Shown in pieces: positions 13,201 to 56,911 of a stretch of 64,000 nucleotides of DNA. The position numbers and the translations under genes are program-made. Source of the DNA: Lytechinus pictus. Its lineage: Eukaryota. The notes beneath the pieces were generated by a model. It did no database searches. It was not told the DNA's origin and saw only the letters and a program-made list of their open reading frames with translations. The stretch lies in the NCBI RefSeq assembly GCF_037042905.1, contig NC_087250.1, positions 10,232,001 to 10,296,000 on the forward strand, given 5' to 3'. How positions within the stretch are numbered: position 1 is the first letter of the stretch; every line of letters begins with the position of its first letter.

Positions 13201-15822
13201 AAATTCATGCAAGGTTTAGGCTGGTGTGTAAAATCAGTTACGACATGTAAAGTACTGTACATGACAGGCACAACGATTGCTCACTTGACATTTTTAGCCA
13301 GCTTTCGCAAGGCCATGCTTTTGCCCCCTAATTCACCACCTTTTTTCGTTTTTGCTAACTCTGCCTTCAGTTCCACATTCTTCTTCCTGCAGTAAAAGTG
13401 CAAGCGGGCATTGATGAACTTGTTCAACAGTTTTGATTTGATGTCATGACAGGTTGGCAGGTCGACATTCCTGTTGCAGAACTCTGCTTCGGCCACTAGA
13501 CGGGTCCTGACATTTGTGTTTTCTGTCAATGTGCATTGTAAACGGCGAAACATTAACTCAACATTTAGGAGCATGTCGTAAGCTTTAGACGAGATGTGCA
13601 TGAGACAACCTGTCTTGTATTCTTTAAGCCGACTGAGTTCTGATGCTTGGTGAATCTCCTCATCTGGTCCTCATGTCACAGCATTCATAGTTATACACAT
13701 GACGCAAGTTATTTCGTTACGTTTGATGCTGTGCAAACAATATCCTGCCAGATTGTACAGGCTGTCTCTTTCAGCTGGTGGTAGATCCTGTTTTGAAGTT
13801 GACTGCTGCTCTGAAAGATGGATGACAATCGGTGGCTCAACAGGCACTTCCACACGCTGTTCCAGAAAGTCTGCCAGGAACTCCCCATCATCTTGTTAGT
13901 TGTTGGTAGCTACCAGATCGTGGAAGAGTCAGAAATTGTGCATTGCTTATGAGCTTCAATGCATACTTGAACTCAAGTGGAGTTGGTACAGGCTTCCTGA
14001 GACGAACAGAAGAGAAGAGATTCTCCAGGCAGTGTTGGGTCAGCCGCGATGTCAACAGGAACGCATGTCCTGCACTCAGCAACTCCTCTGCGATGCTGAG
14101 AACTGATGTGGTAGATAAAATAACCCCGGTTTGTATACGTTTCCAATCGCCTTGTACTCCAATCTTCACTCCCTTGAATACCTCTATAAAATTTCTGAGA
14201 AACGTAGTGGCCTCCTCATACTTTCCTGGATCATGCTGGCTCAGACCCATCACTGGATTTCTACTTGTCATCAAGTTGAACCAGAGATCCAATAATTCGA
14301 TAAACCACGCTGTAGTCAAGTATGCTTCATCTCGCCCCTCTTTCTTCACAAGGTACGTCAATGCACAGCTTACATCATGACTAAGCACCCTTGTCGCATT
14401 TGACACTTTCATCTTGTCGAAGTGGGTTGGTGTGAGAGCAGCCATGTTGAGCTTTGGCGCCAGTTTGAGATCCAGATTTTCCTGAAATTTTCCAAGATCC
14501 TTCAGCGGCTCTACACATGCAACATCAGACTTGAGGCCAAATTTTGTGACTGTCTCTGCCGAAAAAGTGAACTGTTGACCATTCACGAGTGCTGCCTTGA
14601 TGTTCTTAAATAGATGTGGCACATCTGCCAAGAAGTGCAACCACTTTGCTGGGTCCTGCGGATGTGGAATTTTTGATTTTGTCCGGCAGTGCTTTCCACA
14701 TTTGATGCCAAAGCTCTTCCACATTGCACGGTTGGCACTCCCCATGTCACTTGCAACAGCTTCTACGTGAAGACCAAATTCGGACGATCGCTGTATGATA
14801 TCGAGGACAATATCCTTGAACACTGCCCCGTCTGTGGAGTTACTTGTGTAGTGATAACATACTGTCTGCTTCCATCGTGTTGTAATCCCTCCCAGCATGA
14901 ACACTAGTGCATGAGTAGCAGTTCCATCATGCTGGGGCAATGTCACACTCCCCATTAAATCACCACTACCAGCATCATACTCAACACTTGAGGTGAGGGA
15001 CATCTCATCCAGTGTAAGACAGCAAAGTCTCTCATCGGGATGCATGCCTTCCACCTTCAGTTTCAAGAAGTCAAACACCTGTCCTAGGACACCTGGTTGG
15101 AATGACACTTTTTCCATTCTTCTTCGGAGGGTTCTTTCTGATGGAAGCGGGTGATGCTGCTTGAGAAGAACTTTGTAGCCAGATGCACCACATGCAAACC
15201 TCAGCTGCAATGCCTTTTTTACAGTACTTGAGGACCATTCCACTCCTCTCATTCCACCTCGAGAAAGGGCACGTATCTGATCACTTCCAAACAACCTTGA
15301 GAACCGTGACTCTTGCTTCGCTTTGGCCTTTATAACCTTTATACGAGTTTTTCGCATCCGGCGCATATCTGCTTTCAGTTCTTTCATGCGGACTTTCATC
15401 TTTGTCAGCCTTCCTTCAAGCTTTATATTTCGCTGGGTATCTTGCAGAGTCTCTTGTTTACTAGCAGAGTCTTCAGCTATATACATGTACGTGAAAGAGA
15501 GAAAAAAGAAATGGGAAATAATAAATATTGATGCTCCTGCATGTTTAATTTCCATGGCAATAAAGGCACTGAATAGCAATAATTGAAGGGATCTACTATT
15601 AATGGTATCCAGACTATTATCACTTATTCCTTGAAGATGATTACCCGTAACTGTTAATGAATAATGAGCACCTTTTTTGTCCTTCAAAACAATTCAATTT
15701 TTATAAATCGAAGCACACATGACTCACAACCTCCCCCACAAAAAATAAATTAATTAAAAATCAAATAAAATAAATAAAAATAAAATTTAAAAAATGAATG
15801 AATAAATACAAATAATCATTAA

Positions 15823-23714: not shown

Positions 23715-23991
23715 GTGGGTGCGTCGTGATCTAGTGGTTCTGACTCTTGCCTTTGAAACAGAGGGTCCTGGGTTCGAATCCTAGCTATGGCGTCTTTTCC
23801 TTCAGCAAGAAATTTATCCACACTGTGTTGCACTCGACCCAGGTGAGATGAATGGGTACCCGACAGGAGTAATCCCTTGCATGCACTGAGCTCCGGTGAT
23901 GGTAGCTCAAGCTAAAGCCGGGGTAATAATATCAGCGCTTTGTATCCTCAGGCAAAAAGCGCTTTATAAATCCAGCTATTGTTATTATTAT
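23715..23991 (+). mobile_element. tRNA-derived SINE (related copy at 30139-30437)
   Basis: A/B boxes (TGATCTAGTGG, GGTTCGAATCC), a body shared with the 30139 copy, an (ATT)n tail, and a flanking TATAGATA duplication. Confidence 0.85.
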
Positions 23992-25864: not shown

Positions 25865-27362
25865 CAGTGGCGTACCGTGGGTCACGGCATTGGGGGGGCA
25901 CCATAATTTTTTTTAGTCACTTAGTGAGCGCGCGAAGCCAGTTGCCAGATAAACTGACCTAATACAGACATTTTAAGGACAGTGCCATTAAACGGATATG
26001 TATATCACTGATCGCATAATGCGAGCGCGAAGCGCGAGCTGATTTTTTTTTTATATTCAGACCTAAAAAGGGATATTATAAGCAAATTTTTGTAATCATG
26101 ATACATATCTATCTCGCTAAACAAACAATGCGAGCGCGAAGAAGTTTACATATTGGAACTTTGTATAGACTACATTTTAGGAATCCATTAAGAGCATACA
26201 TATCTCACCATAGTCATCTAATGCGAGTGCCAAGCGCTTGCTGATTTTGTTACAATTATATACATCTAAACAGATGAAACACTTTTAGTCATTGTAATCA
26301 TGATTATCACACGCATCACACTAATAAAATATTGCGAGCGCGAAGCGCGAGCTGAAAAATATAGGAAATTCAGATCTGAAGTGGACATTTTAAGGCTTGT
26401 TTGTAGGAATTCACGAAGACCATGCGTATTTTATTAACCAAATGATGCGAGCGCGAAGCGCGAGCTGAAATTTTTGTATATATTGACCACAAACAGGGAT
26501 ATTTTAAGGACTCCTTTTTTTAAGGAATCCATTAAGAGTACACAAATCTCACCATAGTCATCTAATGCGAACGCCAAGCGCATACTGATTTTTTAGAATT
26601 ACATCTAAACACATGAAGCACTTTTTGCAGTCATTGTAATCATAGTTATCATACGCATTTTACTAATCAATTAATGCGAGCGCGTAGCGCGAGCTGAAAA
26701 ACATAGGAAATTCAGACCTGAAGAGGACACTTTAAGGCTTGTTTGTAGGAATTAACAAAGACCATGCGTATTTCACCAACCAAATGATGCAAGTGCGAAT
26801 CGCAAGCTGAAAATTTTTGATATTCAGATTAGAAAAAAAGGACATTTTAAGGACTGATTTTAGGAATTCATGAAGAGCATACATATCTCACCAATCCACT
26901 AATGCGAACATAAGCACGGGCAGGAAATGTTTTATATTAAGACCTTAATATGGGACAATCACTTTAAGTAATCATGAAAAAGAAGCATATGTCACTACAT
27001 AAAACAATAATTCGAAGTGCGAGGAAATCTATTTGGTGTATATTGACTTGAAAACGGAAGGTTTTAGTACAATAGGATTATATATCTCGTTAAACAGACA
27101 ATGGGAGCACCAGGAACAATGAAGACTTAGGCCCTGAGCAAATTGCGTTTCATAAAGTTATGAAATTTTTGAAATGTAATATAACATAACATAATTATTA
27201 TATAACATTATAATGAACAATAATTTCTTCTTTCCCATTACGTTTCTCTCCCTCTCTCTCTCTTCTCCTTTTCCCCGTTTTTTTTTCGTTTTTTTTTCTT
27301 TTGCCAGCCGATTGGGGGGGGGTGGGCACGTGCCCCCCATGCCCCCCGTAGTTACGCCACTG
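25865..27362. mobile_element. 1.5-kb hAT-type non-autonomous element rich in GCGAGCGCGAAGCGCGAGC motifs
   Basis: CAGTGGCGTA...TACGCCACTG ends with a perfect TSD TGTACGCC. Inverted family members are at 53835-55137 and 44801-~53590. Confidence 0.9.
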
Positions 27363-30138: not shown

Positions 30139-30437
30139 GTGGAGCGTTGTGGCCCAGTGGATTAGTCTTCGGACTTTGAAACAGAGGGTCGTGGGTTCGA
30201 ATCCCAGCCATGGCGTAATTTCCTTCAGCAAGAAATTTATCCAGCACACTGTGCTGCACTCAACCCAGGTGAGATGAATGGGTACCCGGTAGGAAGAAAT
30301 TCCTTGAATGCTTTGAGCGCCTAGGCAGCCCAGCTAAAGCCGGGGTAATAATAATAGCAGGGCCCGCTGGGAGAACAGTTTTCGGAACTGAAGCGGCTTC
30401 CCTGGGTAAATATACCTGTATTATTATTATTATTATC
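30139..30437 (+). mobile_element. tRNA-derived SINE
   Basis: TGGCCCAGTGG and GGTTCGAATCC boxes, an (ATT)n tail, and homology to 23715-23991. Confidence 0.85.
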
Positions 30438-33688: not shown

Positions 33689-36600
33689 TCAACACCGGAG
33701 TTTTTGCAGTGTAATTACTCCCATTACGGTCACAACACAGGCGCTAATTGCTAAGACAGCAACCGTAATTATTAAATAAAGGGAAGAACTGGAAAGTCTA
33801 GACGGATCTGTTTCTGCACCGCACCCCACTTTGCTAGCCCACTCTGAAACTGGGAAAGAATTTTCAGACCTCATTTCTCCTGCGTTTCGTCCATGTCCAA
33901 TGGCGATTATGGCGAACTTGTACTCAATCCAGGTGCCAAAGTCTGGCGCGAGGCAAGAATAGTTTCCAGAGACGTTTTCACTGATGAATTCAAGAATAAG
34001 ACTGCCATCCGCACTAACCTCAATGGAACGATTCGGTATGGTTGGAGAAAGTGTCTTTAAAATCATCTTATTTGGAAGAGCCCACAATATGGCACTTTTG
34101 TCGATCACATTCAAAGGACAGGGTAATATCAATTGGGAGTTGTCAACATTTACGAATAAAGTTGGATATTCAATCGAGCAAGTCATGTTATAGGTTTGGA
34201 ACTCGCATTCTCCATATACTGCCAGGGTGGCACATGGGACACCCTCTACGTTGCCTGACATCCAATTGCAAAATGACCGTAAGTGACAGTCACAACGCCA
34301 CGGATTCGAAGAGAGGTTCAATTGAATATACCTTGCTGTAACTGGCAATGCGTTCTGGTGTATCAAGGTCAAGTCGTTGTTGTTCAAGTTGAGATGGAAT
34401 AAAGATTTAGTGGTTACGAAAGAACCTTCCTTAATAACCATGATTTCATTATTGTCAAGGTTCAGATAGTACAGTCTGAACAGTCCGAGAAAGCTATCCT
34501 CCTCAATCATCCTGATTTTATTCCAAGATAGCTTCAAACGGATTAGCTTTGGATGCATTGTGTACTTGAATTGATCTGGTACTGAGTAAAAACAATTGTG
34601 GGTTAAATCAAGAAGACGGAGGGATCCAGGATTAAACCGGGGAAATGTTCTGGTAAGTGAGTTTTGAGAGAACACTATGCTTATCAGGGGAGCCTGGATA
34701 ACGAATGAAGAGTTAAGGGACCATGACTTGACAGCAGAATTGTTGGTCATGTTCAGATATTCAATGCTGCTCGAAGGAGACGTGAGCAATGTTGGAAAGA
34801 ACCCGAAGTCGTCCTTAAAGTGAGAGATTTCAAGATGCTTGACTGGGAACGAATCGAATTGGCCAGTAATCTTCACCGGATTTCCAGTGAGATCGAGGTA
34901 ATGCAGGCGTGGGCACATCGAGAAACACGTCCCAGACAAATAAACTATTTTGTTCCACTGGAGGCTAATTGTATGCAGTCCAGTGAGACCGAAAAGCGTG
35001 TCTTCAGATAAGGAAGAAAGGACGTTGTGTTGGAGACGTAGCGTACTTAGCTGGGAAGCTGACTGAAAAGTGAACGGTGCAATGTATCGAAGTGCATTAT
35101 GCGATATATCAAAATATTTTAAGGACTGTCCTATGTATGGTTCATTTGAGATCGCTACAATCTCATTTCTTCTCAAAGATAACAAAATAATATGTGTCAT
35201 GTATGTCAAACAGGAAATGTCATTTTTTATTTTGTTCTCTTCTAGGTTGACGTGCGTTAGAGCTGAGGAGAAAACAGGATTACCCCTTGCTTCATTCCCG
35301 CGAAGATTAAGATGTCGAAGCTGAAGTAGGTTTTCAGTTGAGTTTCGGTGAATTCTCAAAATGTTGTTATTTTCGAGAATTAGTGTAATGAGTCGGTTTC
35401 TTGCGGGTAAAGTTGGGAATCGTCTCAACATATTATTTGAGGCATACAGAGTTCGTAAAACCGGAATCCGACCTATATCTTCTTGTTCAATATCAGATAT
35501 CTGATTTGAGCTGAGGATGACCTTATCTAATGTTGGAAGGAGTGTTAAACACGGAACAATAGTAAGTTTATTTCCAGACAGGTCAAGTGTATCAAGTTTG
35601 GGAAAAGACAGTGTATCCCTAGCTATATGCCGTATGCTATTTTGGGATAAATTGAGGAAGTGAAGTTGTGGTAAGGAAGGTAGACGGTCAAGTTCTACCA
35701 GGAGATTTTTTTCTAAACGAAGATGTGATAGATTGGTGAGATTGCTCATAACTGATTTATCCCATACAGTTATCTTGTTGCAGAAGAGGAACAGGCTCAT
35801 GAGATTGGGGAGGTTGCGAATGTGACTTAAACTTGACAGGAGGTTTTCACCGAAATCGATGTGTGTTAGGTTATTGCAAGTCGTCAAGTCATCAAAGCTT
35901 ATGTTCCTAAGGGAATTTTTATAAGCATATATACTTCTCAGTAATAAACACTCTGGGATAATCAATTCAGACAAATCGTTCTCTGAGAGGTTTAAGTTCA
36001 CCAATAGAGGATAGGATGATGAAAGATTCGACGTTATCAAACTAGTGGTAATTGAATTACGATTTACATTAAGACTACGCAGACTTCTTAGCGGAATAAC
36101 AGGAGCTACCAGTAATCTATTTCCAATCAAATTCAATACTTCAAGCTTTGTCAGGTTCGCAAGGGATCCAATACCAAGTGTTTTAATTCTATTTTCGTCC
36201 AGAAAAAGCACTTGTAATTCCGGAAGATTTCGAATTGCCACAATGTCAATGATATTGTTGTGCCTCAAATCTATTCGTTGTAAATGTATAAGATTTTGAA
36301 ATGAATTCCTGTTCATTCTTCGAATCCGATTGAATGGAAGAATCAGTTTCCGAAGATTTGAAAATCCAGATAACGAGTCAAGAACTTCAATGAGGCCAAA
36401 TGACATATCTAATACAGTTACGTATCTCGGATACAAAAATGTCCCGGCTGAAAAATCAGTAAGAGGAATGCCTTTGAACTCAGCAAGTTTTATGCAATAT
36501 GGTACGACAATTGGGTCTTCAAGAGGGTTCCATGTGAAACGAAAGATATTCAATTCCTGGTGTAAAAATTGCGTCGGCATTCTAGCAATCCAGTTCCAAG

Positions 36601-37042
36601 ATAAATCGACAGTAGTCAGTTTGGGTAACACGGGTTCTGATGGAAAAGTGGTTAAGTAATTCCCGCGAAACGAAATGTGTTTAAGTTCAAGAAGACCTGC
36701 AAAGGATCCTTCCTCTATGTGGGCTATAAAGTTGTTATCCAGGACTAGGGTATTCATGTCGGATTGGCAAGATAGATCATTAACGCTGATTTTCCGCAGT
36801 GTACCAAAGACTAACAGAAAGGTTGTCGTCGAACATGGTGTGCTCGAGGGAATTTTCTCTGCCGAGGAACAATCCACGATCCTTTCCTCTACTGTCCTGG
36901 TGCAACGGCATTTTCTTGGGCAGTTGCTGATCATTTGTACATTAATGGGCACCAAGATTAAGACAATGAATATAGGTAGGCCTATTGTCAAAGAACAAGA
37001 AGCACGAGATCTTACGCACGGCATGCACAGCGGTGCCATCAT
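33689..37042 (-). CDS. Single-exon LRR-Ig-transmembrane protein (signal peptide, LRRNT, ~30 LRRs, LRRCT, Ig-like domain, TM, almost no cytoplasmic tail)
   Basis: A 1117-aa uninterrupted ORF with a hydrophobic N-terminus, a CPRKCRC cap, LxxLxLxxN repeats, NPWRCDC, Ig motifs (LILPCP, ILW, DGSLIL, SGNYSC) and the TM segment LYLIITVAVLAISACVVTVMGVI. Confidence 0.92.
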   Translation of the reverse strand: MMAPLCMPCVRSRASCSLTIGLPIFIVLILVPINVQMISNCPRKCRCTRTVEERIVDCSSAEKIPSSTPCSTTTFLLVFGTLRKISVNDLSCQSDMNTLVLDNNFIAHIEEGSFAGLLELKHISFRGNYLTTFPSEPVLPKLTTVDLSWNWIARMPTQFLHQELNIFRFTWNPLEDPIVVPYCIKLAEFKGIPLTDFSAGTFLYPRYVTVLDMSFGLIEVLDSLSGFSNLRKLILPFNRIRRMNRNSFQNLIHLQRIDLRHNNIIDIVAIRNLPELQVLFLDENRIKTLGIGSLANLTKLEVLNLIGNRLLVAPVIPLRSLRSLNVNRNSITTSLITSNLSSSYPLLVNLNLSENDLSELIIPECLLLRSIYAYKNSLRNISFDDLTTCNNLTHIDFGENLLSSLSHIRNLPNLMSLFLFCNKITVWDKSVMSNLTNLSHLRLEKNLLVELDRLPSLPQLHFLNLSQNSIRHIARDTLSFPKLDTLDLSGNKLTIVPCLTLLPTLDKVILSSNQISDIEQEDIGRIPVLRTLYASNNMLRRFPTLPARNRLITLILENNNILRIHRNSTENLLQLRHLNLRGNEARGNPVFSSALTHVNLEENKIKNDISCLTYMTHIILLSLRRNEIVAISNEPYIGQSLKYFDISHNALRYIAPFTFQSASQLSTLRLQHNVLSSLSEDTLFGLTGLHTISLQWNKIVYLSGTCFSMCPRLHYLDLTGNPVKITGQFDSFPVKHLEISHFKDDFGFFPTLLTSPSSSIEYLNMTNNSAVKSWSLNSSFVIQAPLISIVFSQNSLTRTFPRFNPGSLRLLDLTHNCFYSVPDQFKYTMHPKLIRLKLSWNKIRMIEEDSFLGLFRLYYLNLDNNEIMVIKEGSFVTTKSLFHLNLNNNDLTLIHQNALPVTARYIQLNLSSNPWRCDCHLRSFCNWMSGNVEGVPCATLAVYGECEFQTYNMTCSIEYPTLFVNVDNSQLILPCPLNVIDKSAILWALPNKMILKTLSPTIPNRSIEVSADGSLILEFISENVSGNYSCLAPDFGTWIEYKFAIIAIGHGRNAGEMRSENSFPVSEWASKVGCGAETDPSRLSSSSLYLIITVAVLAISACVVTVMGVITLQKLRC

Positions 37043-37189: not shown

Positions 37190-38520
37190 AGATAGGAACA
37201 TCACCGATGGAGGGCCTGAGAAGCTTCTAGATTGCGATAGAGAAGTTCGGGTTCCGGTTAAGACATCAACGATGGACATCTGCAGAGGTTTCAATTTTAC
37301 GATGTTTCGATTGCTACATCAATGACGGGCAACTCGAAAAGTTCGGGTTGTTCAGGTTACAACATCGACGATGGAAAACTATAAAAGTTAGTAGATGTTT
37401 CGATTGCGACCTTAATGCTCTGCAACTTGAGAAGTTTGGGTTCCGGTTACGACATCAACGATGGACAACTAGATAATATTTACGATGTTTCGATTGCTAC
37501 ATCAGTGACGGGCAGCTTGAGAAGTCTGTGTTGTTCCGGTTGCGACATCAACTATGGGCAACCAGAGAAGTTGGTACTGGTAGATGTTGCAAATGCTTCA
37601 TCAACGATGGAAAACTTGAGAAGTTCGTTGTTGTTCCGATTACGGCATCAATTATGGGAATATATAAAAGTTCATAGAGATTTTGATTGCTTTATTAATT
37701 CTGTGCAACTATTAGAGGTTCTGGCTGTTCCGGTTTCGACATCAACGATTGACAACTTGAAAAGTTCGTTTGTTGTTCCAATTCGACATCAACAATAGAC
37801 AACTACAGATGTTTTAAGATGTTTCCAATGCTACATCAATGACAGACAATTTGAGAGGTTCGAGTTGTTCCGGTTGGGACATCGACGATGGGAAACTAGA
37901 GAAGCTGGTAGATGTTGCGATTGCTACTCCAACGATGGACAACTTGAAAAGTTTGTTGTTGTTCCGATTACGGCATCAATGATGGAAAACAAGAAATTTT
38001 TGTAGAGGTTTTGATTACGACATTAATTCTACGCAACTGTAGATTTTCGAGTCGTTCCGGTTGGGACATCGACGATGGGCAACTAGAGAAACTGGTAGAT
38101 GTTGTGATTGCTACTTCAACGATGGACAACTTGAGAAGTTCGTTGTTGTTCCGATTGCTACATCAATGACAGTCAAGTCGAAAAGTTTGTAGAGGTTTTG
38201 ATTGCGACATTAATTCTGCGCAACTATCAGATACTATATATTTTCGGGTTGTTCCGGTTACGACATCAGCGATGAGAAACTAGAAAAGTTTGTAGATGTT
38301 TTAAATTGCTGCAGCAATGATGAGCAACATGGGAAGTTTGTTGTTGGTCCGATTACGCCATCTATGATTGGATACTAGAAAGGTTTGTAGAGGTTTCGAT
38401 AGCTACGTCAATGTGCAACTAGGGATAGTTTCAACGTTACAAATGCGACATCATTGATGGCCAACTACGATGTTTGTGGATGTTTTGATTGCCGCATCAT
38501 CGATGGGCAACTAGAGAAGT
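37190..38520. repeat. Degenerate ~40-bp minisatellite with higher-order structure, just upstream of the LRR gene
   Basis: The core ACATCAACGATGGRCAACT recurs, preceded alternately by GTTCCGGTT or GATGTTTCGATTGC variants. Confidence 0.85.
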
Positions 38521-39779: not shown

Positions 39780-41590
39780 GAATATTTGATTTATTGATTT
39801 CCGTTTCACAATTGTACATATTATGATAAACATAACATAACAAGGTCGAAAATACTACAATACATAATAATCATAGATTTAAGGAACATAATTCAATAAA
39901 AAAGGTACGTCAGATGACATTTGTATTTAAAAGCAAAGCTTTTACAAAAGGCAAGCCCCTAACTTAGTTTCATTACAAAATTGCAACAAAGAAGTATTGG
40001 GTCGTAATAATTTATAGATTTTTGTTTGAAAATGAATACAATTTTTGTACACTTTACAAAAACGTAGCTGATGGATCGTGTGAGAAAATATTTTGTTTTA
40101 CAATATTAGAGAGAGGGGGAGAGTGTGTGTGTGGGGGGGGGGTGAAGAGTGGAGGGACAGAGATTAGCAGTGTACACTAAGTAGGGAGGCGCGATAGCTC
40201 AGTCGGTAGAGCGGGGGATTCGTATTCCGGTGACCCGGGTTCGATTCCCACTTGGTGCGCTAGTGCCCTTTGGTAAGGCATTAATCCTCAGTACCAGGTC
40301 CTTCCGAGAGGACCTTAAGCCGTCGGACCTCTGGTTGCTTGCTTACAAGCATTCATGATTTATTAGCAATCAGGTAAAAAAAATTAACTACCAAAAAATC
40401 AAGTAGAAAGAAAGCGGGTTACAAAAGCAGGTACTTTGGCTAATTGCAATTATAAGAAGAAAAAAGATAAAACAAATAATATAGATGAATATGCATTTAA
40501 TATGAGCGCATATAATACAAATATTCCAAAAAGCCGAGTATAACTAAATTAGTTATTCAGCTTGACCTGTTTGCAACGAGTATTGCCAAATTAACATTTT
40601 TTTTCAGTTTGCGTTTAAAAATATTTACATTAGGGGATTCTTTAAAATCTTGAGGCAGAGAGTTCTAGTAGGCAGGCCCGGAGGAGACAAATGAATTCTT
40701 TGCAAATAAAGTTCTTGTTAGAGGAAGGTGATAATATTGCCGTTGCCTTGTTGGGTGGCAGTGTACGGATGTATTTTTACGGTACATATTAGAGAAAATA
40801 GCGGGGAGATCGTCCTTGCTTAATTTGAACATAAATTGACTAAGTTCGAAAAGATAATTATGCCACTTACTTTGAGAATGTTATTTAAAAAAAAAATAAG
40901 ATATCAGTATGTGATCTAAAGTGTGTTTGAAAAATTATTCTTAGAGCTTTTTTCTGGAGAAGTAATATTTCACTTGTGTAATAATAATGATTCAGTTGTG
41001 TTTACATTGCACATCACCAGGCAATTATTCCATAATTAATACATGGTATAGAATAAGGGTGTAGTATAATGTTAACAAAATGCGAGAAGGGAGAAAATGT
41101 TTGAGTTTATTATTAATTCCAATGTTTCTAGAAATTATTGTTTTACATATACTATACTATATGAGGCTTCCAGGATAATTTGTTGTCAATAAGGACACCC
41201 AAGAATCTGGTAGTGGAAACATTATTAAGAACGAAATTATCAAAGAAAATACTGTCTGGTAGGTTTTATTACTAAACAGCATATAGTTTGTCTTCTGGTG
41301 TTAAAGCGAAAGTTTATTGGCCTTGATCCAATCTGTATCATTTGTTAGTTCAAAATTTACGATTCTAACAAGTTGGTTAATATTGTCATGGGAAAAGAAA
41401 ATATTGGAGTCGTCAGCAAGAAGTATAAATGAGAGTAAATTTGATGTATTTTTAATATCATTGATATAAGTAATAAAAAGAAGTGGGCCTAGTAGGCTAC
41501 CCTGGGGGACACCGCAAGTAATTGGAAGAGTAGTCGAATCGCTATTATTTACTGATATATCAGTTACGAACACTATACACATTAGTATAT
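39780..41590 (-). pseudogene. 5'-truncated, degenerate CR1/L2-group LINE
   Basis: GVPQGSLLGPLLFITYIND...ADDS...W.KANKLSLN peptide at 41582-41301, with broken C-terminal motifs downstream. Confidence 0.8.
40185..40400 (+). mobile_element. tRNA-derived SINE, second family
   Basis: TAGCTCAGTCGG and GGTTCGATTCC boxes, an unrelated body, an A-rich tail and a flanking AAGTAG duplication. Confidence 0.75.
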
Positions 41591-45179: not shown

Positions 45180-48100
45180 CGTCGCCCGAGAAGCATAGTG
45201 ACGTTAACTGATTTCACGCGCGCAAAAACGATTTCGAGAAAATCGCATTTTAAGTTTGTGGATAATGTTTGAAGATGGATTTCGCAATGTTATCGTTAAA
45301 TATTTCCTTTAATTTTTCATACAAGAAAACTTAAAGATGTCTTTAAACTCATATCAAGGAATTACGAGAAAATATGCGCAATTCGAGATAATACAGTAGA
45401 TTGAAAAGTTAGCGCCCTTATGCTTCTTGAATCTTTGTGGGTCGGTGGGCGCGCATCGGGGCGTTAACTACTTAGCGCCCCGAATCTTTGTGGATCGGTG
45501 GGCGCGCTTGGGGGCGTAAAGCTACTTAGCGCCCTTATGCCTTTAATTAATTATTCAATTCATGAGAAATTAAAGGGCGGAAACCCGTACAGCGCTTGCG
45601 CATTTTGAATCGAGTAGTGTAAACCACATAATTATGATTGTTCCGTTCTCCTTTTTTATTTTTTTAGAACCTTTCACAGGTCATTTGTATTTTTCTGTTT
45701 TTCTCATCTTCATCTCCCTCTTTTTATCGTCCTTTCTTTATGAATTTCTTGTTTTTATTCTTCAGTTTATTTCTAACATGTTCGTCTCCTTGTTTTCCCC
45801 TCATTAGTGGTAAACTGTTTTTTCTCCTTGTGTTCTTCTCTTTATTTTGTGGCTTCGTCATATTCCCATTTATATTATTTCCCTCTCAACTTTTTTTGCT
45901 TTCTTTTTCATTCTCTGATTACCATGTTCTCTATTTGTAGTCTTGTTATTACTTTGTTTCATTTTCTTCATCTTTTTCGCTCTCTTTCAATTCAATTCAA
46001 TTCAATTCAATTTTGCATTTATTTCATTCTCGATAAAAACAATTATAAAGCAAGGTATGAGAAACAATATATTTACAAGCAAGAGTAAAAATGAAAATGA
46101 AATGGGGAACTGCATAAATAAAGCCAAGTGGCCTTGTGTAAGCGCAGTTCCCAAAACATTAATAACATGACATGGTATAGAGAAACAATAAGATAAAGAA
46201 TTAAACATGATGTATAAACAAGAAAAACAAAACATAAAAAGGTGTCAATCTACAGGACAAAAATAACTATACATATTTAAGATATAGGAACTGCTTCAAT
46301 CTTTTTTTGAATGACCTAACAGACTTGCTTTCAATTACATCTCTAGGGGTGGAGTTCCAAATTACAGGGAAATTATGTCTTACACATTTCATTACGTTAT
46401 TTGTTTTAACTGGCCATAGGTGAAATGAATCTTTAAAACGAGTATTGTGATTATGTATCCGGTGATTAAGGGTAAACATTTTATGGATATTAAGAGGTAG
46501 TTTATTCTGGAAATAAAAGAAACCAATTAATGCAATAGAAAAATAATACAAATCATAAATATTAAGAGACTTTATTTTCCGAAAGAGTGGGGCAGAATGG
46601 GCTTGATGATGACATCCCATACATATACGAAGGGCTTTTTTCTGCAATTTAAATAATTTTTCTAATTTTGTTCGACTGCAATTGCCCCAAACAACAACAC
46701 AATAATTAAGATATGACAGCATGAAAGAATTGTATAATAGTAATAATGCAGAAGTTGGAAGGGAGTCTTTTAACCTATATAGAATACCAACACATTTAGA
46801 TACTTTTTGGGTGACTTTTTTAACATGAGTGTCCCATTGCATATTATAGTCTATATAAACACCTAGAAAATTAACACTATTTACCTTTTTAATTGGAACT
46901 TTGTCTATTTCAAGCAATAAATCATTGAGTAAATTAGAAATGCAAGACTGCCTATGGAAAAAAGTAATATAATTAGTTTTACTAGGATTTATTAACAACC
47001 TGTTTGATTTGAACCATTTTGTAACTTTATCTAATTCAACATTGATATCATTTTGTATATTAAGATTATAAGGTTGGTTGTATATTAAAGTAGTATCATC
47101 GGCATACATAATATATTCAAATTTATTTGAGGAATATATGAGATCGTTGATGTAAATTAGAAACAATAGCGGGCCGAGAATAGAACCTTGCGGTACACCA
47201 TGGGTGATACTGGAAAAGTCTGATGAACTATTATTAAAAACAACATATTGGGATCTATCAGAAAGATAACTTTTGAACCAAGAAAGTGGTAAGCCCCTAA
47301 CCCCATAGTGTTCTAATTTGAAAAGAAGTATTTTGTGATCGACAACATCGAAAGCTTTAGAAAGGTCTATGAAAATTCCTATGCAAAATTTATTAGTATG
47401 AATGGATGTCAAAACTTTATCTTGTAATTCTATCAAAGCGTGTGCAGTAGAGTGATTTTTTCTAAACCCGTATTGTGAATCTGTGAGAATTTTATTGTTT
47501 AAACAAAATGAATACAGTCTATTATAAATACACTTTTCAAGCAACTTAGAAATAGACGGTAGAATAGATATAGGCCTATAATTATCAAATTTATGAGGGT
47601 CATCTTTTTTAAATACTGTAGTTATCTTAGCTATTTTCAACTTATCAGGGACCGATCCTGTAGAGAGAGAGAGATTAAATATGAATACCAATGGCTGTAC
47701 AATATAGAAAATAACTTTTTTCAATAAATTAGTACTAAGATGATCAAATCCCATGGAATTGCTTCTACTTAATGAATTACATATTTGAATTACCTCATTT
47801 TCTGTTATAGGATTTAAGAAAAAGGATTTGTCAATATGATCAATGAGAAAATCTTTATAAGAAGTGTCACTATGAGAATTAATTATAGATGTGGTTATCC
47901 GTCTGGAGGAGTTTATAAAATGTTGATTAAATTCAGTCGCTATGTGTTCTGGGTCATAAACCTTTTCACTCCCACTAAAAAAGAATTCAGGTAAAGACGT
48001 TTTAGGTTTGTTTAATAGTGAGTTTATGACTGACCAGGTCTGTTTTGTATTGTCTTTGTATTGCTTTAATTTATTAGAAAAATATTTCTTTTTTGCATGC

Positions 48101-51100
48101 TTTAACATAGTATTCAATTTATTTCTATATCTTTTGTATTTCATTTCATTATCTAATGAATTATTTTGGAGAAAATGTTTATAGTAACGATTTTTCTTTT
48201 TAATGCACCTGAATAAAAACTTTGATATCCATGGTTTATTGAACATCCTTTTGGTAGGTTTAGATTTGAGCAAAGGAAAGTTTTTATCAAACAATTGGAT
48301 AAAACGAGTTATAAAAAACGAGTATGCATCATTAACATTTGTAATATTATAAAGACTATTCCATTTTTCCTGGTAAAGGTCATACTGAAAATTTCTTATA
48401 TTATCATCTGAGTATTTACGAGTAAAGCGAGTTGTATTAGGTTGATGGGAATTAGCACTAGAACATTTGGAGATCAGAAAAATTGGTAGATGATCACTTA
48501 TGTCTGAACATAGACTACCAGAGTCAAAATATGAATCCAAAACATTGGTGAATATATTATCAATAAGTGTAGCTGTGTTTAGTGTAATACGAGTTGGAGT
48601 TTTTATAATTGGGAATATACCTAGTACAGAATTCAGCCGAAGGAATTCGTTAACAGTATCATCATCTTTGAATAAGTCAATATTAAAATCACCAGTTATA
48701 TAAATTTTTCTATGTTCAGTGCATAATTTGTTAATAACACTATCGTAAAATTCAAGAAATAAATCATAATTTGATCCCGGTTTTCTATATATGACACCAA
48801 TATTAGACATTTTATGTTTTTTATCTAGAAAATCAATAAATAAATATTCACAGACTGAGTTGATTTCTTGGTTAAAAACTATATCATTCCTTATGGTGTA
48901 CTGTATATTTTTTTTCACAAAAAGTGCAACGCCCCCACCTCTTCCGGATAATCGGTTAACATTCAGAAAATTAAAGTCATCTATGTGAAAATTGATTAAA
49001 GTATTATCATTTATCCAAGTTTCAGAAATTGCTATAAAAGAAAAGGAATGAGTAATCATGGATAGGAATTGAGAGATATTGTCAAAATTCTTTGGTAAAC
49101 TGCGAGCATTAAAATGGATAAGACTTAAGGTAGAATTGTTTGGGAATTTCCCATTAAACTCTGAAGGTAGAAAACATGAAGATTCAGAAGAATTAAATAC
49201 GTGCAAGTCAGGATCAACATCTTCAAGAGGGTCAGACCTAGGTTCCATAAACGTAATTTATAGGGGTAGCATAATAATGGAAATGAATTAATCGGTAAAT
49301 TTGAAGCAACATTGTAAAAGGATGTATAACTATATATATACATATCTCAAAAGTAATGCTTAAACTATCTTTGCAGAACATCATTATTAAGTAGAATACA
49401 CCTACGTAAAAAAAAAAAACAATATAGCAACAATAAGCAAAGCTTGATAATAACAAAATTGGGGGGGGGGGGGGGCAACAAGAAAGCAGTTCTATATGCA
49501 CTCCTATATGTGTATACAACAGGATAACAGTTGGGGATGACAAATAAAGATAAGTATAAAGCACACTTTTTGACGAGTTTAAAAGTGCATTGAGGTTTCA
49601 ATGTCCATTAACTTGGCAGTATATTAAAACAATTAAAGATTAATGACATAACGCATAACAATCATTAAATACTAACTCTAGAAACATCATCAGCATGTAC
49701 ATATAAAGTAATTGTTGAGAGAAATAGTTATTCCATATGATTACGATATAGATACCTTCCTTTGTATCTGAATATAATTTAAAAATTCAAATAGTTCATA
49801 ATATATGATGGACACAAAAAAGGCGTATAAATCAATAGTTAGTATCAAGTTTTATATTCAGGCTTGATAATGAAAAAAATCATTAAAACAGTTATATTGA
49901 ATAACATATTTATGAGTGAAATACTCCATGTAATTAATCCAGATATTAATAATGTTTTGTCAATAATCTTTTACAATGTATGTTAAGCATTATTTTGATA
50001 GATTATATTGAATGCCAAACGATGTTCAGGGAACAAAATGCATATACTGTATGTACTCATTAATTAACAAGTCCTTTATCCACTATTGATTCATTGCATC
50101 TAGAAAACATGAAGATAATATTAATTGATTCATGATTCTTTAAATGATGAGAGAAAAACCAGATAAAGATGAGATATAAATGTATTTCTATATACATCTC
50201 TTTGCATATTATATTGATAGACTATAAACAAATCTTTAAAAGAAATATTAAGAATGAAAAAGAGTGAACAGTGTGCCATATTTATAAATCATGATATCAA
50301 TGGCTGGAGAAGATAATAAAGAAACATATCTAGATAATTAAAGAGTGTATTGTGTATGTATTGATTTTAATATAAATGATTATGATTAATATTAAGGAAA
50401 TATATATATATACATAATATTTTCATAAAATACATTCAATAAATAAAAATAAGCTGAAATAAAAAAAAATATCATTGCAGCTATTTTAAAGACATATTTT
50501 CATAAGCATTACCTCTTTTTGTTGAGCACTATTTCTATTCTCAATAAAGCAAACTTTTAGTGCAGGCTATCCAAAAATAAGGCTACCTGTAAAGTCTAGC
50601 GTCATGTTTACCTGCACAAAGTATACAGAAATGTAAAACAAATGTCAAGGGGCACCAATCAACTATTGTATATAAAATGTCTTATTTTTTATTCCTGAAA
50701 TACAAATTGTCCAAAATTTTCTTGCAATTTTATCAAAATCTTATTCTTAATCCTACTATGCTTTCTTCTTCTCATACATATCAATTTTACAATGATATTG
50801 TTTTAATACATTCATATTCGTCATACTATAGAGCACTTAAGATCAGAGAAAAATATTCAGAAATTGTATTTAAAAACATTGGTCTGTGGATTATTTTCAG
50901 CTAATTAGCTAGATCGGATCTGCAGTTAGATTGCAAAACATGTGAAAAATCAGCTGATGCCTACAAAATACTGATCACCAGTAATCGCATGTTCATCCAT
51001 TATGACGTCAGTGTGCATAGCGTGGCATTGTTTGTGACGTCAGTGCGCGTAGCGTAAAATATGCGCAGATCATGATGCGCACAAACATAATACGAGTTAA

Positions 51101-53837: not shown

Positions 53838-55137
53838 TGGCGTAACTACGGGGGGCATGGGGGGGCACGTGCCCCCCCCAATCGGCTGGGAAAAAAAAAA
53901 AAAAAAAAAAAAAAAACGGGGAAAAGGAGAAAAAGAGGGAGAAAGGAAGAGAAACGTAGTGGGAAAGAAGACATTATTGTTCATTAAACTGTTATATTAT
54001 ATCATAATTATGTTATGTTATATTACATAAGAATTTTTTTTTCATAACTTTATGAAACATGATTTGATCAGGGTCTATGTCTTCATTGTTCCTGGTGCTC
54101 GCATTGTCTGTTTACCGAGATATATAATCCTGTTATACTAAAACCTCCCGTTTTCAAGTCAATATACACCAAACTGCCAAATATATTTCCTCGCACTTCG
54201 AGTTATTATTGTTTTATGTACAATAGTATGCTTCTTTATCATGACTACTAAAAGTGATTGCCCCATTTTAAATATATAAAAAATTTCCTGTCCGTGCTTA
54301 CGTTCGCAGTAGTGGATTGGTGAAATATGTCTGCTCTCCATGAATTCCTAGAATCAGTCCTTAGAATGTCCCTTTTTCTAATCTGAATATCAACAAATAT
54401 CAGCTCGCGCTACGCGCTCGCATCATTTGGTTAGTAAACTACGCATGGTCTTTGTGAATTCCTACAAAGAAACCTTAGAATGCCCCACGTCAGGTCTGAA
54501 TTATCTAAATTTTCAGCTCGCGCTTCGCGCTCGCAATATTTGATTAGTGAGATGCGCATGATAATCATGATTGCAATGACTACAAAAAGTTTTTCATGTG
54601 TTCAGATGTAATTCTAATAAAATCAGCAAGCGCTTGGCACTCGCATCAGATGACTATGGTGAGATATGCATATTCTTAATGGATTTCTAAAATATATTCC
54701 TTATTTGATAAGTGAAATACATATCTGTTTAATGACATTGTCCTTAAAATGCCGTGACCCACGGTACGTCACTGCGGACATATCAATGACAATTACTTGC
54801 ATATCTAAAAACATGATTGCAAAAAAAATGTCAAAATATTTCAGTCATCCCCCCCCCCCCTCCCATCAACACGGATTTACGCCAGTGGTACGTATCATGA
54901 TTAAAAAAGATTGATTACAATGTCCCTTTTTAGGTCTGAATATCAAAAATTTTAAGCTCACGCTTCGCGCTCGCATTATTTGACCAGTGAGAGACGTATC
55001 CGTTTAATGGCACTGTCCTTGAAATGTCTCTATTAGGTCAGTATACCTGGCAACTGGGCGCGCTTCGCGCGCCGACTAAGTGACTCAAAAGTTTTTGCTG
55101 GTGCCCCCCCAATGCCGTGACCCACGGTACGCCACTG
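53835..55137. mobile_element. hAT-type element (family of 25865-27362) inserted in a (TA)n microsatellite
   Basis: CAGTGGCGTA...TACGCCACTG ends with (TA)n on both sides. Confidence 0.88.
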
Positions 55138-55345
55138 TATATATATATATATATATATCACATTTGTATACTTTCTCACATACGTGTACTGTATCAAAGC
55201 AATAGCTTTGATCCAGCTGAGGCATGGCGGCTTGTCATTGTTCAAAACCCACCTACACCCGACAAAGGAAATTATAATTGGTATAGTGTCGAAAATCTGT
55301 CTATCTGACGGTCAATCGGATCGGGGTTGCCCTAGCCACTAACCC

Positions 55346-55417
55346 GTCTCTGTGGTCTAGTGGTTAAGACACCGGCGTTCAAAGCTGGATGCCCGGGTTC
55401 GATTCCCGGCAGTGACA
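55346..55417 (+). tRNA. tRNA-like gene or pseudogene with anticodon TCA (opal-suppressor type, short variable loop)
   Basis: 72-nt cloverleaf: acceptor GTCTCTG/CAGTGAC (one T-T mismatch), D stem GTCT/AGAC, anticodon stem CCGGC/GCTGG with loop GT-TCA-AA, T stem CCGGG/CCCGG with loop TTCGATT. It is followed directly by TTTTTT. Confidence 0.6.
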
Positions 55418-55569
55418 TTTTTTCGGCATTACCAATTTTTCCAAAGGGCAGATAGCTCCGGGGAACCTTGATTTAATTAGCTACACCTACCATTGTTCTC
55501 TTCATCCATTTCTTTCCCAAAATATTTATATAAAAGAGTTGCCAAAGCTGCTGCACATGTATAATATAT

Positions 55570-55799
55570 AGCAAAATACAAGGTGAATAAAACAACCGTA
55601 GAGAGAAAAATTAGATCAAATTTTCGCCCAGAGGGGTTCATCAGTCATCAGGAAATGATGAATTTATTAGTCAACAGCATCAAGAAACGCACTTGATGCT
55701 GTTGACTAATAAATTCATCATTTCCTGATGAAGCCCAATGGGCGAAAATTTGATCTAATTTTTCTCTCTACGGTTGTTTTCTTCACTTTTTATTTTGCT
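55570..55799. repeat. Long inverted repeat (~110-bp arms, 7-nt loop) with hammerhead-like cores; Penelope-like inverted end
   Basis: A perfect 40-bp inner stem (55645-55684 / 55692-55731). CTGATGA-A-GCCC-AAT-GGGC-GAAA lies at 55725-55747, with a variant on the opposite strand in the other arm. Confidence 0.7.
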
Positions 55800-56911
55800 T
55801 TATACTACCACAACCGACGCAGGACCTTCATTTTTATTATATATATATATATATATTGAAGGGGAAATTTACCCTGCCAATAAGTTGGCTTGAATAAAAG
55901 CTGAAAATTACAACAACAAAAACGGTAGAAAAAGAAGAAGATAATGATGAAGAAGAAGAAGAAGGAGGAGGAGGAGAAGTTGAAGAACCTTCTTGTTAAT
56001 TTTCTTCCTCATTGAAGATCATAGCGAAGTTGGCTCAGGTCGTATAAGAGTAGGAGGAAGCTCTAGTACTGCTGGGCGTATTTCGCGAAGTATAGGGCTT
56101 CTCACTTCTTATGCAATATGTTTTTGTTTTTCAAAATCAAACTTTAAATAATAAAGGTACCATATTTTATGTAAGTATCACACAACACGGCAACTTTGAA
56201 AAGCGCTTGAAAATTGGGTCATTTAAAAGTAAAAGGAAAGAATAAAACAAGCGTACGTGATTCACATATTTTCATTTTTAGAGTCCTATTATTCGAATGT
56301 AAGGGGACGTCTTATGATAAAATTGTGTGAATCGATGAAATAACACAAAAAATAGACAATAAAAACGATATCTCGGGTTACCCCCCCCCCACACACACAC
56401 ACACACACGCACCCTCTCTCCCTCACACACACACACACACACACACACGAGGTAAAGGCGAAATTTGATAATATTGAGATTGTCAATGCATGATCCGTGA
56501 AAAGTGCGGGTTCGCTCCCGAATTCTTTAAATTCACCTTTTTCCTGTAATTTAGGGAAGCACTTTTCCAATGCAGATTCTTAAGAAATAGACCCAGTCTC
56601 TCCGTCCACTTTTTGATGAATTCTTGGACACGCCCTGCACTGCAAAAACTCTGGTGCTGATTTAACACCAGAGAAAAGTGTTAAACAACACTGCAGTTTC
56701 GTTTTGGTCTAACACCAGATAAGTGATTATACAACACCAATTAGTATAAAAACAGCATCGGTTTGATTCCAAACTGGTGTTATTTCAATACTTCTCTGGT
56801 GTGGACATAATATAGATTCCGGGCTGGTGTTAAATCAACACCGGAGTTTTTGCAGTGCGATGCTCTAACGAACTATTCCTCGACCCTTCGGCAATGCAGA
56901 TCTCATTTCTC

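Follow-up and report, generated by a model that had tools for sequence, protein, structure and literature searches.

The closest described systems are tRNA-derived repeats, satellites derived from SINEs and tandem arrays of tRNA genes. In MetaSINEs, a tRNA-Thr-like head is followed by a conserved central domain (PMC4824008). In Schistosoma, 2,342 of 2,368 tRNA-Gln calls are SINEs (PMC2770079), and 28,830 of the 31,868 tRNA predictions in the cow are repeats (PMC2680898). The sSats of squamates are satellites derived from SINEs (PMC10702118). Tandem tRNA arrays are reported in Entamoeba, and very large tDNA clusters have been described in Nematostella and in zebrafish/teleosts (PMC2888827).

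We analyzed a tRNA-like unit with a stop-reading anticodon in a 64-kb stretch of DNA, the whole of which is referred to below as the window. Positions 55346–55423 in all likelihood represent the tRNA-derived core of an isolated monomer that belongs to an abundant, mostly tandem repeat family, and probably specify no UGA-decoding tRNA. The features of the locus are collected in Table 1.

Table 1 The tRNA-like unit, the repeat monomer that holds it and the adjoining microsatellite (window coordinates).
Feature	Position	Strand	Details	Basis
(TA)n microsatellite abutting the left end of the monomer	55138..55158	.		direct reading
Monomer-length copy of a very high-copy repeat	55159..55565	+	407 nt	contig depth, loose ends, joints
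Left arm (spacer) of the monomer	55159..55345	+		contigs cross the arm and the tRNA part unbroken
tRNA-like module	55346..55417	+	72 nt including discriminator A	ARAGORN, Rfam, pair-by-pair reading
A-box-like stretch	55353..55364	+	tRNA positions 8-19	direct reading of the sequence
Anticodon-position triplet TCA	55379..55381	+	preceded by G32 (55377) and T33	ARAGORN, direct reading
B-box-like GGTTCGATTCC in the T arm	55396..55406	+		sequence reading
Private change of the window copy, T (majority A)	55413	+	unpairs T at 55349	
T6 run TTTTTT, Pol III terminator-like	55418..55423	+	adjoins the discriminator directly	
Right arm (spacer) of the monomer	55424..55565	+		contig alignments

The module has the properties of a well-formed tRNA. 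ARAGORN called a tRNA with the anticodon tca at 55346–55417 on the forward strand, and the same stretch matched the Rfam model RF00005 over its full length (model positions 1–71 of 71) with 61.1 bits (gathering score 29, E 8.6e-11), the sole Rfam match above gathering score within the 64-kb window. Read pair by pair, the cloverleaf forms 20 of the 21 standard stem pairs, including one G-T. All pairs are present in the D stem (4/4), the anticodon stem (5/5, with the G-T pair) and the T stem (5/5), and the acceptor stem forms 6 of its 7, with a T:T mismatch at 55349/55413. The conserved tRNA letters U8, A14, G18 G19, U33, the T-loop TTCGA and a purine at position 37 were found by direct reading; the variable loop is 4 nt long, and the discriminator at 55417 is A. 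The stretch at tRNA positions 8–19 resembles an A box. The anticodon loop reads GTTCAAA, with G at position 32 (55377), which is atypical and very rare in decoding tRNAs. The sequence-only reading had described a near-perfect cloverleaf with one acceptor T-T mismatch, a TCA anticodon, a T6 run straight after the discriminator and an unusual G at position 32, and each of these points was confirmed. The free minimum-energy fold of the unit is not the cloverleaf and is weakly better than the folds of shuffled sequences (z = -1.89). Such a departure from the cloverleaf is common for tRNA genes, and the weak free-fold score does not weigh against the covariance-model result.

The isotype of the unit is less straightforward. 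Its TCA anticodon, which is complementary to a stop codon, is shared with tRNA-Sec and with natural and predicted suppressor tRNAs, and ARAGORN labels the unit SeC owing to this triplet alone. tRNA-Sec is distinguished by its long variable arm, by acceptor/T stems of 9/4 or 8/5 and by a D stem of 6 bp. In contrast, the unit combines 7/5 stems and a 4-bp D stem with its short variable loop, and it fits the general tRNA model better than tRNA-Sec. The assignment to tRNA-Sec had been rejected from the sequence alone, rightly on this comparison. The 3′ half of the unit presumably resembles animal tRNA-Gly(UCC), the putative source implied by the sequence-only reading, but the acceptor stem (T2:A71, C3:G70) lacks the Gly identity pairs. 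The discriminator A together with C35 and A36 would fit part of the eukaryotic Trp identity set.

The region 55150–55750 was aligned with four public runs at 80% likeness. Two of these, X1 and X5, are DNA contig sets from the same organism produced in different studies, X11 is a DNA set from a second organism (organism B), and X21 consists of raw polyA RNA-seq reads from the organism of X1 and X5. The region was matched by 5121 contigs in X1 and by 4314 in X5. Across 55171–55569, the summed word depth of the contigs, a quantity that is not equal to copy number, was 5.7e4–4.9e5 in X1 and 1.4e5–9.9e5 in X5; from 55570 to 55750 it was 2.5e2–4.4e3, corresponding to an approximately 100-fold drop after 55570. 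The thousands of distinct contig variants show that the family is large. Single contigs span parts of both arms and the tRNA part between them without interruption (for example, 55181–55446, 55205–55476 and 55172–55502). The left arm also contains an 8-bp palindromic hairpin near 55189–55216, and a search of the arms at E up to 10 for a second tRNA-like half or a ribozyme returned none beyond the tRNA itself and weak noise. The tRNA-like unit is thus the core of the high-copy repeat, in agreement with the sequence-only reading that it lies in repeat-derived DNA. The distinction that the same reading drew between this unit and the SINE heads of the window, which run on into a body, did not hold, because this unit is also located inside a longer repeat.

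Most family members follow one another in the same orientation, head to tail, and the period is about 412 nt. Joints that go back 402–407 nt (from 55563/55565 to 55159/55162), with 4–9 letters between, were found in X1, X11 and X21, and further such joints, with 5–20 letters between, in X5. The consensus of the loose ends before 55159 is the end of the unit itself. In the RNA run, 251 reads carry the tandem joint, whereas the depth of the last bin is about 352; most of the copies covered therefore lead on into another unit. Thus, the family consists mostly of high-copy monomers placed head to tail at a fixed period, as in a satellite, whereas this locus lies outside any array. A blastn search of the unit against the 64-kb window returned only the unit itself, a single monomer between the (TA)n microsatellite and an unrelated inverted repeat, and at the TA-rich flanks of this one copy in 64 kb no target-site duplication could be clearly called.

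The inverted repeat directly to the right of the monomer has 83-nt arms (55562–55644 and 55725–55807) that are 90% complementary and 80 nt apart. It is found at moderate repetition in the DNA runs and could be a MITE-like element. A repeat of approximately 1.1–1.3 kb, in which short units surround a palindromic core rich in GC, occurs twice in the window in inverted orientation (53928–55057 and 25938–27269, with pieces 81–92% complementary), and its copy at 53928–55057 ends about 100 nt before the monomer.

We compared the window copy with the family majority, which is composed of majority letters and not of linked single copies; the differences, counted among the variants listed, are lower bounds. 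At least 14 of the 407 places differ, at least 4 of them in the tRNA part (55369, 55389, 55390 and 55413) and at least 10 outside it (55255, 55328, 55430, 55449, 55459, 55485, 55517, 55529, 55551 and 55554). Since 4/72 and 10/335 are not significantly different (Fisher p = 0.28, among the variants listed), the tRNA part of the window copy is not specially preserved, and this copy drifts evenly without sign of a protected tRNA part. At 55369 the majority has G where the window has A, so that the T-A pair 11:24 of the window copy is T-G in the majority. The differences at 55389 and 55390 (majority G and G; window A and T) both fall in the variable loop. At 55413, A accounts for 377322 of 379637 depth in X1 (99.4%) and 763884 of 773224 in X5 (98.8%). 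The majority 4:69 pair is therefore T-A and the acceptor stem of the family majority is fully paired, which makes T:T a defect confined to the window copy.

Conversely, the anticodon belongs to the family as a whole. The A at 55381 makes up more than 99.9% of the depth, the sole alternative listed being T (344/370068 in X1 and 1531/617522 in X5), and no variants at 55379, 55380, 55377 or in the T-run are among those listed. The family majority keeps TCA and, among the variants listed, the T-run. As grounds against its proposal, the sequence-only reading had named random or sense anticodons with unpaired stems among the copies, a pseudogene score and the lack of a mature transcript. The outcome is mixed. 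Random anticodons and unpaired stems are not what the copies show, since TCA and complete acceptor pairing prevail in the family. On the other hand, the copies number in the thousands, 4 of the 72 nt of the window copy are private and one of these disrupts a pair, and transcript ends of mature size were not seen in the RNA run, which was unsuited to tRNA.

The RNA run covers the whole unit in both read orientations similarly, with a depth of approximately 100–410 per bin and orientation over 55150–55569 and of less than 11 from 55570 on. Cover over the tRNA part was not in excess, and reads did not begin or end preferentially at its borders, in this polyA cDNA library, which is of a kind that does not capture tRNAs and neither shows nor excludes mature tRNA. 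Only 11 of 2039 reads were at least 99% like the window copy. This cover has the appearance of repeat copies being transcribed passively as parts of longer RNAs. The variants in RNA are not a simple sample of those in DNA: G at 55413 is present in about 50% of the RNA reads versus 0.5% of the DNA depth, and similar shifts occur at 55227, 55303, 55430 and 55486 and for a 3-nt gap at 55476. RNA editing was considered as the cause and rejected, as the shift is not limited to A>G and affects other kinds of change together with it. Preferential expression of one subfamily accounts for the mix of RNA variants better than editing does.

In organism B, the module and the arms behave differently. One contig carries the same unit with the tandem joint (11 differences in 261 nt, 7 in 116 nt, and 3 gaps). 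Over the set, however, a depth of 2.6e4–7.5e4 is reached over 55339–55422 only, that is, over the tRNA part and the T-run, compared with 72–2800 on either side; the alignments extend to about 55424, past the T-run, and many contigs begin matching at 55343–55348. The loose-end consensus sequences match the window arms at 18 of 30 letters upstream and 17 of 30 downstream (by eye, ungapped), which at a chance identity of 0.26 corresponds to p of about 7e-5 and about 3e-4, respectively. As these matches exceed chance, the organism B arms are homologous to those of the window and far more diverged than the module.

The anticodon stem provides a further indication of constraint. In organism B, positions 55372 and 55373, both C in the window, are T in 94% and 99% of the depth. 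On the 3′ strand, 55386 is changed from T to C (67%) and 55387 from G to A (71%), at a much smaller depth contributed by the contigs that align through, and a loose end after 55385, common to 23 contigs, continues with letters that pair those Ts. Read together, these observations point to two double changes, from C-G to T-A at 27:43 and 28:42, and to a change of the G-T pair to G-C. At 55381, a minority of organism B contigs have T (1337/3191 depth), and another loose end has the same loop with TCA. Judged from majority letters and from loose-end consensus strings among those listed, as distinct from linked individual copies, it is the tRNA-plus-T-run module, and not the window locus, that appears to be constrained. 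A conserved tRNA with its terminator, compensated stems and fast-evolving arms would give a repeat the look of a gene-plus-spacer array rather than of a SINE head.

We also scanned contigs for patterns taken from the unit. The D-arm/T-arm pattern was found 0 times in viral contigs and once in metagenome contigs, in a contig (L001) with two tRNA-like units at 150–236 and 442–516, about 290 nt apart and with homologous downstream flanks. The intact unit (ARAGORN: Ile, gat) has the same acceptor/D-arm/T-arm scaffold as the window unit and a different anticodon arm. This contig was rejected as a member of the family, because its tRNA-like repeat is a different one whose anticodon arm has GAT; it suggests that related tRNA-like tandem repeats exist in another organism. 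The anticodon-loop/T-arm pattern was found in none of the genome contigs and none of the viral contigs scanned.

The remainder of the window contains several other elements. Two related SINE-like copies on the forward strand (23715–23990 and 30139–30420) are built alike, with a body between a tRNA-like head and a tail terminating in ATT repeats; their heads were called by neither ARAGORN nor Rfam. At 40189–40260(+), a tRNA-Thr(cgt)-like head identified by ARAGORN, below the Rfam tRNA gathering score, runs into a body that continues to about 40380; MetaSINEs are likewise described as having a tRNA-Thr-like head (PMC4824008). The ORF at 46267–49248(-) is of the LINE type and has endonuclease and reverse transcriptase domains, its Atlas rows being from Cnidaria, Arthropoda and Echinodermata (a weak pointer), and a P-element/THAP9-like transposase ORF is located at 13888–15687(-). 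At 33689–37042(-), an ORF of 1117 aa without interruptions contains many leucine-rich repeats (Pfam LRR_8, 3e-67); its nearest Atlas clusters are animal LRR-Ig proteins (Chordata, again a weak pointer). TGA terminates both this ORF and the transposase-like one, and the end of the LRR ORF is one example consistent with TGA as a stop here. A tandem array of 15 copies of a unit of about 47 nt (93/94 nt doubled), 61–76% identical to the reference copy, lies at 37257–38417.

These data bear on several alternative explanations. The unit could be a canonical tRNA-derived SINE spread by LINE-mediated retroposition, its head starting at 55346 and followed by a body and a tail, with 55159–55345 as the tail of a neighboring copy. 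The promoter boxes in the tRNA-like head, the other tRNA-headed SINE-like elements of the window (23715, 30139 and 40189), the LINE ORF with its endonuclease and reverse transcriptase domains and the start of many organism B matches at the head would all fit such an origin, and satellites derived from SINEs are known (PMC10702118). However, a SINE has a 5′ head from which Pol III reads through into the body, and the majority-kept T6 directly after this head would stop Pol III before the body. The phase of the unit is ambiguous, as the copies are tandem, yet in the window copy, as in many contigs, the head comes only after 187 nt of repeat sequence. The unit lacks a tail of its own, whether A-rich or made of simple repeats, and most copies stand head to tail with a fixed short linker. 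The organism B flanks, compared by eye, are diverged homologues of the arms and not unrelated insertion sites. We therefore consider a canonical SINE improbable.

The sequence-only reading had proposed a potential opal suppressor, for which we found no support at this locus. A working UGA suppressor tRNA gene, here or among other family members, would agree with the tRNA-grade score of 61.1 bits, the A- and B-box-like stretches and T6, the TCA and fully paired cloverleaf of the majority and the double changes that keep stem pairs in organism B, and the partial fit to Trp identity would point the same way. It is nevertheless very unlikely: an active suppressor present in thousands of copies should be harmful, the window copy has an unpaired 4:69 position and four private changes, and no read starts or ends pile up at the tRNA borders, in a library unsuited to tRNA. 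A decoding role of the module is generally unlikely because of the enormous gene dose, the G32 that decoding tRNAs very rarely have, the acceptor stem that presumably lacks the Gly identity pairs and the gene-like LRR ORF that ends in TGA. It is harder still to believe in an ordinary single-copy tRNA gene, for example for Gly-UCC, with a local point change at anticodon position 36. A single anticodon change would suffice, and the shape and T arm of the unit resemble those of tRNAs with small variable loops; but the A at 55381 dominates the family depth in two DNA studies, so that the change is not local, the same A is found in part of the related families in organism B, and the flanks are repeated too.

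We favor instead the reading of the locus as a dispersed monomer of a tandem family. In each monomer, the tRNA-like unit, which contains the A- and B-box-like stretches and TCA, is preceded by the left arm and followed first by the T-run and then by the right arm. On this reading, the TCA was inherited from the founder of the family and not acquired recently at the window locus. At the level of the family, the tRNA-plus-T-run module appears to evolve more slowly than the arms and to keep its stems. We hypothesize that it is most likely kept as a unit that binds Pol III/TFIIIC (TFIIIC at the B box) and/or as a tRNA-like fold recognized by processing enzymes. Arrays presumably grow by unequal exchange, and single monomers may disperse via excised circles. 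The 407 nt of the window copy, out of a period of about 412 nt, would fit a unit-length piece, although one case proves nothing. The window copy itself is a drifting orphan monomer that most likely contributes no UGA-decoding tRNA.

Some family members may yield a tRNA-like RNA: in the majority, the Pol III-type unit is intact, its cloverleaf is perfect and a T-run follows, and paired changes between the two organisms appear to keep the stems, as would be expected of a functional small-RNA gene. Taken further, the array could be an amplified Pol III gene with its spacer, selected in at least two organisms for a UCA tRNA-like RNA, some copies of which would be processed and have a cellular role. 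We regard this as an outside prospect; possible roles would include RNase P/Z processing of satellite transcripts, TFIIIC chromatin boundaries and condition-specific UGA read-through.

For annotation, the consequence is practical: tRNA finders would call this locus and thousands of its relatives tRNA-Sec or suppressor tRNAs, and the family should be masked as a repeat. For biology, the family is a clear example of a tandem repeat whose monomer centers on a complete and apparently constrained Pol III-type tRNA-like unit. If transcribed, it would be informative about the recruitment of Pol III/TFIIIC by satellites and about the tolerance of cells for very large numbers of stop-reading tRNA look-alike genes. 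The window locus itself is ordinary, and the family-level constraint on a unit with a stop anticodon is the part worth following. A text search of the literature for the 17-letter string of the anticodon arm gave an exact match in no paper, and no description of the family was found in the literature searched; Repbase and Dfam lay outside this search, and we do not claim that the family is undescribed.

Among the known systems, tRNA-derived SINEs such as the MetaSINEs (PMC4824008) and the Sm-alpha-like tRNA-Gln elements of Schistosoma (PMC2770079) are similarly high-copy and tRNA-related with Pol III boxes. Like theirs, copies of the window family are predicted by tRNA finders as tRNAs with odd anticodons. 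Unlike these SINEs, the window family has its tRNA part 187 nt inside the unit, as seen here, and a near-perfect majority cloverleaf followed immediately by a T-run; its copies are mostly head to tail, and no LINE-like or A-rich tail was seen. The sSats (PMC10702118) resemble the window family in being tandem monomers that come from a tRNA-related interspersed element and in the coexistence of tandem and dispersed forms. However, the sSats derive from portions of known SINEs with a modest copy number, whereas the window family retains the whole Pol III-type unit with its terminator, and its depth suggests that, unlike the sSats, it is a major repeat. Tandem tDNA arrays (PMC2888827) share with it the head-to-tail arrangement of gene and spacer, with the gene part conserved and the spacer diverging between organisms. 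The window family combines features of tRNA-derived repeats, SINE-derived satellites and tandem tRNA arrays. A comparable gene-plus-spacer layout is found in 5S rDNA arrays. What sets the window family apart from tDNA and 5S arrays is that those carry sense anticodons or rRNA, whereas its own unit has a stop-reading anticodon and a putative RNA product.
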